From the NCBI GenBank assembly GCA_016839365.1, contig JAEOUH010000047.1, positions 18,152 through 82,151 of the forward strand: a DNA stretch of 64,000 nt, written 5' to 3'. Both the position numbers and the translations under genes were made by a program. How positions within the stretch are numbered: the stretch's first letter is position 1; each line of letters starts with the position of its first letter. The DNA is from Candidatus Hermodarchaeota archaeon (GTDB lineage Archaea; Asgardarchaeota; Hermodarchaeia; Hermodarchaeales; Hermodarchaeaceae). The notes below the pieces were generated by a model that was given only the letters and a program-made list of their open reading frames with translations, was not told where the DNA came from and did not search any database. This document shows, piece after piece, positions 35,869-52,500 of the stretch.

Positions 35869-35977
35869 TGGCGCCCGTTCCGGGATTCGAACCCGAGTCC
35901 TAGGAGATCCGCAGACCCATGAATCATCATTGATCGTTGACAGTCCCAGATGATAGACCTGGCTACACTAAACGGGC
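35869..35977 (-). tRNA. tRNA-Asp(GUC) with 31-nt canonical intron 35907-35937
   Basis: GCCCGTT/AACGGGC acceptor, TGGGA-CT-GTC-A...C-TCCTA anticodon arm, CCA; BHB helix CTGT/GCGG. Confidence 0.92.
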
Positions 35978-36048
35978 GCGGTGTTGTGTGGATTATTTGG
36001 GGAAATTTAAAGGTTACTCTGGTCGGAGTGGCTGGTTTGGGTGAGGGT

Positions 36049-36181
36049 TGGTCCCGGCGCCCGGATTTGAACCAGGAACCATCTGGTGTCTGCGTTGGTT
36101 GACACCCAGTCATTGCCATGATGGCTCGGGGTGCGGTGTATACCTACAGCCAGACGCTCTACCAGGTTGAGCTACGCCGGG
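36049..36181 (-). tRNA. tRNA-Tyr(GUA) with 56-nt canonical intron 36088-36143
   Basis: C1-G72 acceptor CCCGGCG/CGCCGGG, TCTGG-CT-GTA-G...A-CCAGA, CCA; BHB helix CTGT/GCAG. Confidence 0.93.
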
Positions 36182-38350: not shown

Positions 38351-38427
38351 TGGAGCCTCGGGCGGGATTTGAACCCGCGACCCTCGCCTTACCAAGGCGA
38401 TGCGCTACCACGCTATGCCACCGAGGC
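38351..38427 (-). tRNA. tRNA-Thr(GGU), intronless
   Basis: GCCTCGG/CCGAGGC, TCGCC-TT-GGT-AA-GGCGA, CCA. Confidence 0.95.
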
Positions 38428-38440
38428 TCAACAGGCTAAA

Positions 38441-38623
38441 TGGTGCCGAGGGCGGGCGTTTCGTGAAGCCCTACAGGCTTCAGTTCGATCCCGCGACCTC
38501 CAGATTTCTCCGGTGCGCCAGCAATCATCATATTTTGACCCTGGGGCAAAGCCCTATGAGTATCGCCCTGACATTTCAAGAATGTTCCAAGTCTGGCGCT
38601 CAACCAGGCTAAGCTACCTCGGC
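38441..38623 (-). tRNA. tRNA-Met(CAU), elongator-type, with three introns: 30/31 (38562-38592), 37/38 (38506-38554), 59/60 (38458-38483)
   Basis: 183-nt gene minus 31+49+26 nt gives a 77-nt cloverleaf GCCGAGG...CCAGA-CT-CAT-AA-TCTGG...CCTCGGC-A-CCA; each intron has BHB geometry. Confidence 0.87.
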
Positions 38624-38793
38624 AGCACTAACCCACCGACCGTACCTTTTAAGCATTATTCTCAGGGCTTCCCCGATTCACAATTTTTCACACCTATTCA
38701 CTAACACGAAGCAATTTTAAGCACCAAAACAACTTTGACACGCCACCAACTGTGCGGGGCGTGTCCAAGGGTCACCGCCACAAAGACTAAGCC

Positions 38794-38904
38794 GCGGGGG
38801 TATCTCCCCCGATAGAGACCCCACAGCCAAGCTTGGTCAAAGGCGCAGGACTTAAGATCCTGTCTCGTAGGAGTTCCCGGGTTCGAAGCCCGGCCCCCGC
38901 ACCA
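38794..38904 (+). tRNA. tRNA-Leu(UAA) with 23-nt BHB intron at position 8/9 (38802-38824)
   Basis: GCGGGGG/CCCCCGC acceptor, CAGGA-CT-TAA-GA-TCCTG, long variable arm, CCA; BHB GGGG/CCCC with bulges GT|A and AC|A. Confidence 0.88.
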
Positions 38905-39005
38905 ATTTTCAAAAGATTTTTGTGCAATCTTGGAAGGTAGCGATTCGGAAAGCCACAAGCATCTTCCGAATCATTAATCAACAGTACTTGCACTAAATCA
39001 AATGA

Positions 39006-39080
39006 GCCTCCGTAGCATAGTGGTGGTGCTTTGGCCTTGTAAGCCAATGGTCCCGGGTTCAAATCCCGGCGGAGGCTCCA
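39006..39080 (+). tRNA. tRNA-Thr(UGU), intronless
   Basis: GCCTCCG/CGGAGGC, TTGGC-CT-TGT-AA-GCCAA, CCA. Confidence 0.95.
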
Positions 39081-39334
39081 TTTCAAATAATGAGTTTTTA
39101 GATAATTTTGTAAAAAGCACCTTTAGAATGAAGTGTATCGAAATACATGGAATTTCATAGGGTTTAGACCAATGCGGTTGTTTATCGAATAGAGCCACAA
39201 TGATTTACTCAGGTTGAAGATAATGAAACTGGGTTTTATTATCTGCAGAGCCCTTGGTATAATTAAAATTAGATTACAGCAAGAAGTTTCTAGATAAGAT
39301 TTATCAAGAACCCGTCTTTTCCTATACGCGCATC

Positions 39335-39470
39335 GGGCCGGTAGTCTAGTTATCCGGTTACAACTTGTGCTGGACTAGAGCGGTATGATGCGAGAAGGAA
39401 AACGGGTTCTGTTTTTCTCGCAAAGTTTGGGACCTCGTGGTCCCGAGTTCAAATCTCGGCCGGCCCACCA
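39335..39470 (+). tRNA. tRNA-Pro(UGG) with two non-canonical introns: 17/17a (39352-39380) and 30/31 (39395-39424)
   Basis: Removal at BHB sites (CTAG/CTAG; TGCG/CGCA) gives a 77-nt cloverleaf with CGAGG-TT-TGG-GA-CCTCG and CCA. Confidence 0.88.
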
Positions 39471-44464: not shown

Positions 44465-45764
44465 ATGGGAACAAATGCAGAAGGTACTGGTACTACGAAG
44501 TATTGTATTCATGGTAAAATCGAGATAGATGGAGTAGTTGAGACCCCCGATGTTGTAGGTGCTCTCTTCGGTCAAACGGAGGGCCTACACTTCATATCGG
44601 CGATGTGAAGGGGTAATCGGTGAAGATTTAGATCTAAGAGAATTACAACAGTCGGGGCGGATTGGTCGAATAAAAGTCGAGCTTCACACTGAGAGTGGAA
44701 AATCAAAGGGCACTATCACTATCCCATGTAGCCTAGATCGGACGGAAACTGCAATCCTTGCTGCAGCAATGGAAACAGTGGACAGAGTTGGTCCTTGTGC
44801 GGCTAAAATAACCCTTGAAAAACTCGAGGATGTCCGCGAAGAAAAGCGGCAACAAATCGTAAATCGTGCAGTAGATTTGCTACGGGATTGGGAAGGGGAA
44901 ATCTCTCCAGATTCTCAGGAAATGACGGATACGGTTCTTCAACAGGCACGTACTGCAGAGATTATCAAACTCGGCAAAGAAAAGCTGCCTGCAGGGCCGG
45001 AGGTAGAGATATCAAAGACCATTATCATCGTAGAGGGTCGAGCAGATGTCTTAGCCCTGTTGAGATCTGGTGTCAAGAACGCTGTTGCAGTTGAGGGGAC
45101 ATCGGTTCCCAAATCTATTGCTGACATTGCCAAGGGGAAAACCGTGATTGCATTTCTCGATGGAGATCGTGGTGGGGATCTAATTCTAAAGGAGCTTGCA
45201 CAAACCATCAAGGTTGATTATGTGGCTAGAGCACCTACTGGTAGAGAGGTAGAAGAACTCACTCACAAAGAGGTTACTAAAGCTCTCCGTAATAGGATTC
45301 CAGCAGGGCAGATTTTAGGAAAAGCGCCAGCTAAGGCGAAGCCAAAGGAGAAGAAGCGTACCCGTCGGACCCCCGAGAAGATCAAGAAACCGCGTCGCAC
45401 AACAACGCGTACCACCTCTCGCATTACCACACGAACGAAAGTTGAAGCAAAACCAGAGCCAAAGGTGAAGGATTTGGGAATCCCAGAGCCGGTGCTTGAT
45501 TCGGCTCAAAAGATTCAACGGACGATGATGGCAGTCATCATGGACGAGAAGTTTAAGCAATTAAAGGAGACTCATGTGGGTGAACTTGCTAACGATTTGC
45601 AGGAACTTGATAAGGCTAAAGTGCTTATCCTTGATGGCGTTGTAACACAACGCCTTATTGATATTGCCGAAGATCGTGGCGTCGAATTAATTATTGGGGT
45701 GCGAGTTGGCAATATTGTGAAGAAACCGGCGAAAATGCGTATCCACACTTTCGATGAACTGTGA
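44465..45764 (+). CDS. dnaG: archaeal DnaG (primase-like, exosome-associated); join(44465..44588,44617..45764), 423 aa after splicing
   Basis: AAGGTGA RBS + ATG 44465: [41 protein letters not shown], continuing in another frame as [18 protein letters not shown]...VEGRADV...FLDGDRGG. Confidence 0.92.
44589..44616 (+). other. predicted 28-nt BHB intron in dnaG mRNA
   Basis: GCCT-AC|A-CTTCATATC-GGC-GATGTGAAG-GGGT-AA|T; excision restores frame and CTA CTC GGT GAA GAT (LLGED). Confidence 0.85.
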
Positions 45765-50874: not shown

Positions 50875-50983
50875 GGGCCGATAGTCTAGCTATCTGAGAG
50901 GAGGCTATTCTCTTGGACTAGAAGGCTATGATATCGCGTTTACACCGCGATGGTCGGGGGTTCGAGTCCCTCTCGGCCCACCA
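50875..50983 (+). tRNA. tRNA-Val(UAC) with 32-nt BHB intron at 17/18 (50892-50923)
   Basis: GGGCCGA/TCGGCCC, TCGCG-TT-TAC-AC-CGCGA, CCA; BHB CTAG/CTAG with bulges CT|A and AA|G. Confidence 0.9.
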
Positions 50984-50995
50984 AAGAACCCTTTT

Positions 50996-51457
50996 ATGAA
51001 GACAGCTCAAAGGCGTCGAAGCGGAGATGAATGTTTGCCAGATAAAGGTAAGAAACTCTGGTTTACCCGGTTTGTATTATTCGGAGGCGTCTACGACATA
51101 GTCTTAGCCTTGACTTTTCTCTTCTTTACACCGATAGTTTCAATTCTTCTCAATTACCCGATTTCGATTCTATCTGCGGCGCTCCTTCAGATCATCGGCG
51201 CGTTTCTGATAGGTTTTGGTTTGGCATTGCTCGTAGCAGCAAGAAATTTAGATCAGCAACTCATCATCCCGATCGCCAACATTCCCGCTCGAATAATTGC
51301 CGCTGTTGTTCTCATGTACTATATTTTTCTAGGGTTACCGTTTACTCTGCTTGTGTTGGGAATCATTGAAGGTCTCTTTGGCATTGTTTACACCATCTTC
51401 ATCCTTGCCATTCCTGAGTACACATTCCGCTCGGTTTTCAAGAATGCGCCAACATAA
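50996..51457 (+). CDS. hypothetical 4-TM membrane protein; start probably downstream
   Basis: Hydrophobic ORF between two tRNAs. Confidence 0.6.
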   Translation: MKTAQRRRSGDECLPDKGKKLWFTRFVLFGGVYDIVLALTFLFFTPIVSILLNYPISILSAALLQIIGAFLIGFGLALLVAARNLDQQLIIPIANIPARIIAAVVLMYYIFLGLPFTLLVLGIIEGLFGIVYTIFILAIPEYTFRSVFKNAPT

Positions 51458-51497
51458 CCTTCTTAAATAACGCAGTTTTAACAAGGAAACAATGTGT

Positions 51498-51583
51498 GCC
51501 GAGGTATCCTAGCCTGGTAGGGAGCAGGCCTGCTAAGTCTGTGTCCATCGGACTCACGAGTTCAAATCTCGTCCTCGGCGCCA
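51498..51583 (+). tRNA. tRNA-Ser(GCU), intronless
   Basis: GCCGAGG/CCTCGGC, CAGGC-CT-GCT-AA-GTCTG, long variable arm, CCA. Confidence 0.95.
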
Positions 51584-52119: not shown

Positions 52120-52151
52120 ACATTATATATTGCGGAGTTGTGTGAGCTGAA

Positions 52152-52500
52152 TGGACGGTGAGCCTAGGCGGGGGGCTAGAAGCCCCGCAGCGCCGCTACG
52201 GGCTGGCTAAGGCTCCCCTGCACCGCAAACGCTCTATACGGCGGGCTGAATGCCGATGTTAGGCTTTCTGACCTGTTGTACGACTCACTGTTTAAGGCTG
52301 TGACGATCCGCCTCGGAGGATCGCTGGTGGCGGTAGGCTTTTCGTAGGAAGGGCTGAATCGTCTTTATCAGGTGAAACCAGCGAGGCCCGGGAGGGAGCA
52401 GCGTAAGCCTGTACTGTAGATGCTTCCGAGATCCGGGTCTGAGACCTGACTGTGAGTACGGCTTCAGGGAGGGTTGACGACCGTCGGGGTTCATCGTCCA
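52152..52500 (+). ncRNA. ffs: SRP RNA (7S) with predicted 31-nt BHB intron 52180-52210
   Basis: Terminal helix TGGACGGTGAGCC/GGTTCATCGTCCA; helix 8 GC-GAGG-CCC-GGGA-GGG-AGCA-GC; helix 6 GTAG tetraloop; TATA TTATATAT upstream. Confidence 0.92.
52180..52210 (+). other. predicted 31-nt BHB intron in the SRP RNA Alu domain
   Basis: GGCT-AG|A-AGCCC...GGGCT-GGCT-AA|G; excision yields GGGGGGCTAGGGCTCCCC whose loop TAGGGC pairs with GCTCTA (52231-52236). Confidence 0.8.

Follow-up and report, generated by a model that had tools for sequence, protein, structure and literature searches.

A putative EndA/RtcB-type intron in the Alu domain of the SRP RNA of Hermodarchaeia

The SRP RNA gene of a Candidatus Hermodarchaeota archaeon, found in a stretch of DNA of 64,000 nucleotides that is referred to here as the window, is interrupted in the apical loop of Alu helix 3 by an insert of 31 nt. 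The question that this locus raises is whether the insert is cut out of the transcript by the enzymes that splice archaeal tRNAs or stays in the mature RNA as one more helix. We consider it highly probable that positions 52180–52210 are a spliced intron of the archaeal EndA/RtcB type. Transcription would produce a precursor of ~349 nt, in which the insert and exon 1 would fold into a one-sided HBh' motif; an (alpha-beta)2 EndA would cut after the second base of each bulge, i.e., between 52179 and 52180 and between 52210 and 52211, and RtcB would ligate the exons. In the product of 318 nt helix 3 would pair again and its loop, now of the ordinary kind, would dock on the loop of helix 4 and close the Alu domain. 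SRP assembly would very probably be dependent on the tRNA-splicing enzymes if, as we infer, the function of SRP needs this step.

The SRP RNA gene and the geometry of its insert

The match to the Rfam Archaea_SRP model (RF01857) runs from 52156 to 52496 with 123.7 bits (gathering score 96.5) and covers model positions 1–317. In the helix-3 loop, for which the model has 2 nt, the gene has 32. The terminal helix (helix 1) lengthens the gene to 52152–52500, i.e., 349 nt, and at the 3' end one RNA contig stops at 52500 and continues as sequencing adapter. An earlier note on this DNA, made from the sequence before any search, had given the same length, coordinates and letters for the gene and its insert. 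The gene is collinear with the model, with helix 1 intact and helix 8 uninterrupted, and is the only SRP RNA match in the host genome (2.2 Mb, an 84% complete assembly), in which no intron-less copy was found, although one may lie in the unassembled part. The partners SRP19 and SRP54 are encoded by the same genome (PF01922 and PF02978, both above the cut-off). The features of the locus and of the splicing enzymes are listed in Table 1; a scan for sigma-70 promoters was set aside, the host being an archaeon.

Table 1. Features of the SRP RNA locus and splicing enzyme genes of the host (positions in the window unless a contig is named)
Feature	Position	Strand	Remarks
RtcB RNA ligase gene, 482 aa	20547..21995	+	sequence match
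EndA-family gene, likely structural (beta) subunit, 196 aa	36781..37371	+	catalytic His absent
EndA catalytic alpha gene, 186 aa	contig C43, L084:1474-2034	-	catalytic-region sequence kept
TATA-box-like element, putative archaeal promoter	52121..52130	+	~22–30 nt upstream of the SRP gene; seen in the sequence, function inferred
SRP RNA exon 1, 28 nt	52152..52179	+	5' strands of helices 1–3 and first three bases of the pseudoknot strand
Central helix (4 bp), 5' exon strand of the HBh' motif	52174..52177	+	paired in 22/22 distinct rows
5' bulge	52178..52180	+	predicted cut 52179/52180
Putative intron, 31 nt	52180..52210	+	intron helix 52181–85/52200–04, apical part, 3' strand of the central helix 52205–08
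3' bulge	52209..52211	+	predicted cut 52210/52211; RNA contig X18 aligns from 52211, 2 letters clipped
SRP RNA exon 2, 290 nt	52211..52500	+	remaining Alu domain, helix 5, S domain, 3' end; abundant RNA contigs
Helix-4 loop hexamer, partner of the spliced helix-3 loop (Alu pseudoknot)	52231..52236	+	pairing analysis

The motif is built from a central helix (52174–77 with 52205–08: G.U, G-C, C-G and U.G), two bulges on opposite strands (52178–80 and 52209–11) and an intron helix (52181–85 with 52200–04). What the earlier note had called a BHB motif stands as far as the central helix of 4 bp, the two bulges of 3 nt and the intron helix of 5 bp are concerned, but it is not a full hBHBh' motif, in that the exon-side helix is missing. 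Since G52173 faces G52212 where the exon-side closing pair would be, the motif belongs to the one-sided class HBh', not to hBHBh', and no outer pair is present in any of 23 Hermodarchaeia sequences. In the published classification HBh' is counted as canonical (bioRxiv 10.64898/2026.10.13.758758). All four central pairs (two of them G.U) and an intron helix of 5–6 bp were found in 23/23 sequences. When the insert was shuffled 20,000 times, a canonical class appeared at the exact register in 0.6% of the shuffles and within ±3 nt in 4.0%, and the combination of four central and at least five inner pairs in 0.055%.

Removal of 52180–52210 does leave 318 nt, as had been proposed, and the new six-base loop pairs with 52231–36 at six of six positions, one of them a G.U. 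This loop-loop tertiary pairing of helices 3 and 4 is a feature of archaeal SRP RNA (PMC2905702).

Inserts in the SRP RNAs of Hermodarchaeia and other Asgard archaea

The same insert was found in Hermodarchaeia MAGs, and all of the 15 other genomes of the family that have an SRP RNA match carry it, while a second type of insert is present in Atabeyarchaeia. The relatives compared share the insert with its BHB geometry retained, and not as an extra helix devoid of that geometry, which the earlier note had raised as the other outcome. The nine pairs of the motif are kept in 22/22 distinct rows of the alignment, with three one-sided compatible changes; no two-sided compensatory change was seen in the BHB pairs across these 22 rows. 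The pseudoknot pairs that form across the junction are 99% intact; one C-G has been replaced by U-A, a compensatory change, and G.U is repaired to A-U or G-C.

Nine excision registers were scored in 30 distinct 5' domains, 23 of the Hermodarchaeia type and 7 of the Atabeyarchaeia type. The register at 52180 gave a mean of 5.9 of the 6 pairs of the helix 3/4 pseudoknot in the 23 Hermodarchaeia-type sequences, the highest of the nine, and the cut sites predicted beforehand are the sole register of a canonical BHB class in 23/23 of these domains. In an nhmmer comparison, with a profile derived from 13 SRP RNAs that carry no insert of the BHB type, the 52180 splice scored 121.2 bits, the next register 117.5 and the unspliced precursor 106.9. 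The same pair of loops is found uninterrupted in insert-free Asgard SRP RNAs (L012, L040, L047 and L048; three other families), which here take the place of the Methanocaldococcus Alu hairpin with which the earlier note had compared the spliced form. A search of metagenome contigs for the spliced, i.e., intron-less, Alu domain of the Hermodarchaeia lineage returned no matches. An origin of the insert by local duplication of the helix 3/4 sequence was considered; the resemblance is explained by the near-palindromic central helix. The same-genus MAG G004 contains two SRP RNA genes (L031 and L050), both with the insert, possibly by strain contamination (5%).

The seven Atabeyarchaeia-type sequences (L017, L018, L036, L071, L073, L081 and L082) all have an unrelated and variable insert of 30–31 nt with a full hBHBh' motif. 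Its cut lies 2 nt downstream of the Hermodarchaeia site and the mature loop is identical. In either lineage the insert splits the pseudoknot strand precisely where the BHB motif of that lineage places the cut. In a tree of the SRP RNAs with their introns taken out, Hermodarchaeia and Atabeyarchaeia did not resolve relative to each other, and one gain with sliding fits this tree as well as two gains.

Further inserts were found in helix 8, in a survey that took in the families other than f11, f16 and f21–f26. Inserts of 18–32 nt are present in the helix-8 tetraloop of four other Asgard families (f7, f14, f18 and f20; carriers L007, L008, L013–L015, L035, L038, L089, L091, L092 and L094–L096). 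The motif is HBh' in 11 of the 13; one of the remaining two is relaxed and the other has four central pairs with no adjacent inner helix. Excision restores the conserved tip of helix 8, which is the ligation site of the permuted Thermoproteus SRP RNA (PMC4731332). In L039 (G041, family f17) an HBh' insert of 31 nt is located in the 5' strand of helix 8, and here excision restores the conserved strand. We also observed an extra short hairpin between helices 3 and 4, at the UGUNR turn, in L012, L013, L015, L025, L035, L038, L046 and L048 (families f7, f9, f10, f18 and f19); by eye it is not BHB-like and it may be a retained expansion. In L025 (f19) there is an additional insert of ~10 nt or more between SRP helices 6 and 8 in comparison with other families.

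RNA contigs and alternative explanations

The transcript data come from three RNA runs, which were compared together with one DNA run as assembled contigs, not as raw reads. Exon 2 was found in two wetland metatranscriptomes at depths of 4287 and 716, in the version of a close relative (7–9 differences); the strain of these RNA contigs had no exact match among the SRP loci compared. The exon-2 contigs begin at 52206 and 52211, the latter with two unaligned letters. Positions 52180–52205 are covered by no contig of the three RNA runs, while the DNA run spans the insert region. Taken alone, the missing cover of the insert is a weak argument, because exon 1 is likewise uncovered in all the RNA runs and run X15 lacks the 5' region. 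The contig starts are more informative. In simulations only the splice at 52180 yielded both of them, under four out of four scoring schemes, and unspliced RNA gave a start at 52209. A strain difference is an unlikely cause of the two-letter clip, because 52210 is invariant in the relatives. The contigs of the three RNA runs include no contig or joint that spans the junction. The contig edges are therefore a hint of the predicted junction, given by one clipped end from a relative, in runs that possibly come from one campaign.

The strongest alternative, to which we give a small probability, is that no splicing occurs and the 31 nt stay in the RNA as an expansion helix that branches off helix 3; the pseudoknot strand would then be put together from the two sides of the branch, or else be supplied by the near-repeat at 52205–13. 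It has several points in its favor. The insert is conserved like the exons: its mean pairwise difference is 0.065, no more than the 0.069–0.13 of exon-2 regions, although 22 of its 31 nt either take part in the motif or fall outside the most variable apical part. Folds without a BHB are predicted to be more stable and are 97–99% compatible with the alignment; the MFE fold loses one pair in 7/22 rows and a local hairpin is 99% compatible. With ViennaRNA the HBh' fold lies 7.2 kcal/mol above the precursor MFE with a central-helix probability near 0, so that MFE folding of the precursor does not predict the BHB. This objection is real and not fatal, because the anticodon-loop tRNA introns of the host span about 0 to 7 kcal/mol above the MFE (some with probabilities <0.1), with the SRP insert at the upper end, and the Atabeyarchaeia SRP motifs span 0 to 6.7 kcal/mol. 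The missing exon-side helix, the two G.U pairs of the central helix and the lack of two-sided changes in the BHB pairs likewise weigh against splicing. A retained helix would also have a counterpart in the extra hairpin, apparently kept, between helices 3 and 4 of other Asgard families, and would agree with the junction not being seen directly in the RNA contigs. However, it leaves unexplained why each of two unrelated inserts should interrupt the pseudoknot strand precisely at the cut site of its own BHB motif, and why both should give the same loop. Besides, the near-repeat would pair at only 5/6 positions, with a central mismatch, the insert lacks RNA cover where exon 2 reaches a depth in the thousands, and the observed start is 52211 instead of the 52209 of an unspliced RNA.

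Two further alternatives retain the splicing and modify its place or its extent. Splicing could take place at 52182–52212, the register of Atabeyarchaeia; the motif would then be a relaxed one, which has an exon helix of 5 bp but one mismatch in its central helix. An intact outer helix with three of four central pairs is indeed available there in 15/23 sequences, but the other 8 have fewer than three central pairs, the mean number of pseudoknot pairs falls to 4.8 (vs. 5.9), the profile score is 6 bits lower and the predicted contig start would be 52213, not the one observed. We regard this register as very improbable. Hardly more credit is due to partial or conditional splicing, or cutting without full ligation, in which competing folds would set the amount of mature SRP RNA. 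Strong and conserved alternative hairpins do compete with the HBh' fold, and contig breaks near the junction would fit a graph that branches into two forms; nevertheless, no contig of the unspliced form was found in the three RNA runs (contigs cannot measure levels) and no positive sign of regulation was detected.

Splicing enzymes of the host and known systems

Two EndA paralogues are present in the host genome. The best match of the alpha protein is PDB 3p1z_B (E 6e-46), which we take to be the EndA of Aeropyrum pernix. Its Lys40 aligns with Lys44 of the Aeropyrum enzyme. This residue belongs to a crenarchaea-specific loop that gives EndA a broad specificity, including the cleavage of bulge-helix-loop (BHL) motifs (PMC3241643). 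Judging from the genes, the host encodes an (alpha-beta)2 EndA of predicted broad specificity, which should cut one-sided motifs, together with RtcB. Its tRNA genes include HBh' inserts in the D-loop, and dnaG has an HBh' insert of 28 nt (44589–44616) whose excision turns a frame of 47 aa into one of 423 aa, the two halves matching positions 1–30 and 32–419 of the DnaG profile. Because the dnaG frame is restored in this way, one-sided motifs outside tRNA are very probably processed in the host cell. The tRNA genes with D-loop HBh' inserts and multiple introns on the genome contigs numbered 41, 43 and 74 were mis-assigned by ARAGORN. The window contains RtcB and EndA beta, several tRNA genes with introns, and also dnaG and the SRP RNA gene; besides the positions in Table 1, this group takes in 35869–36181, 38351–39470 and 50875–51583. 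It is probably an ordinary informational gene cluster.

If the insert is spliced, maturation of the SRP RNA in Hermodarchaeia needs EndA and RtcB, and what is annotated as SRP RNA in several Asgard lineages, also in Rfam, is the precursor. The two unrelated inserts, 2 nt apart and leading to one mature loop, would be a compact test case for the arrival or sliding of BHB introns.

BHB introns are also found in archaeal rRNA. In archaeal pre-mRNA they are known from cbf5 (PMC2738675). Like both of these, the SRP insert would be an internal intron of the EndA type outside tRNA; unlike them, it sits in another host RNA and contains no homing endonuclease ORF. For archaeal pre-tRNA introns the classes hBHBh', hBH and HBh' are distinguished (Marck and Grosjean 2003, as coded in bioRxiv 10.64898/2026.10.13.758758), and the tRNA genes of Asgard archaea are rich in introns at non-canonical sites (PMC11291895). 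The insert resembles such non-canonical tRNA introns in its length (~30 nt), its HBh' class, its predicted cut positions and its enzymes, and differs in that the host is an SRP RNA. SRP is absent from the main text of both of these works; the 2026 preprint makes no mention of Hermodarchaeia and leaves intron arrival or sliding open. In agreement with the earlier note, our literature search found no intron internal to an SRP RNA, with most subscription papers outside its reach. The splicing chemistry is known, and SRP RNA as a host for internal introns has not yet been reported in the literature searched.

It is likely that internal introns spliced by EndA have in SRP RNA one more class of archaeal host, and that Asgard lineages acquired them repeatedly. 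Four sites would be involved, two of them in the Alu helix-3 loop and the other two in helix 8, and at each one the interrupted part has to be restored before the RNA can fold or bind protein. In these close relatives of eukaryotes, protein targeting would be coupled in this way to tRNA splicing.

Processing within SRP RNA has been seen before. Circular fragments of 7S RNA were described in Sulfolobus and Halobacterium (Danan et al., PMC3326292), and they too are products of SRP RNA-internal processing, but they are minor, of unknown function and derived from uninterrupted genes, with no intron described. The closest parallel is the SRP RNA of Thermoproteus tenax and T. uzoniensis, which is circularly permuted (Plagens et al., 2015, eLife, PMC4731332). 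These authors obtained cleavage in vitro with the EndA heterotetramer, proposed ligation by RtcB, and considered that the permuted genes plausibly came from an ancestor with simple BHB introns. In both systems the SRP RNA would mature at a BHB motif, as described for Thermoproteus and proposed here for Hermodarchaeia. In Thermoproteus, however, a permuted gene gives a circular product, and its BHB joins leader and trailer at the helix-8 tip, whereas the Hermodarchaeia gene is collinear, with an internal insert in the Alu helix-3 loop and a predicted product that is linear. This is, with the same likelihood as the wider proposal above, the state of the ancestor envisaged by Plagens et al., so that Asgard lineages would supply the intron-bearing form from which, in their proposal, the permuted SRP RNA arose.
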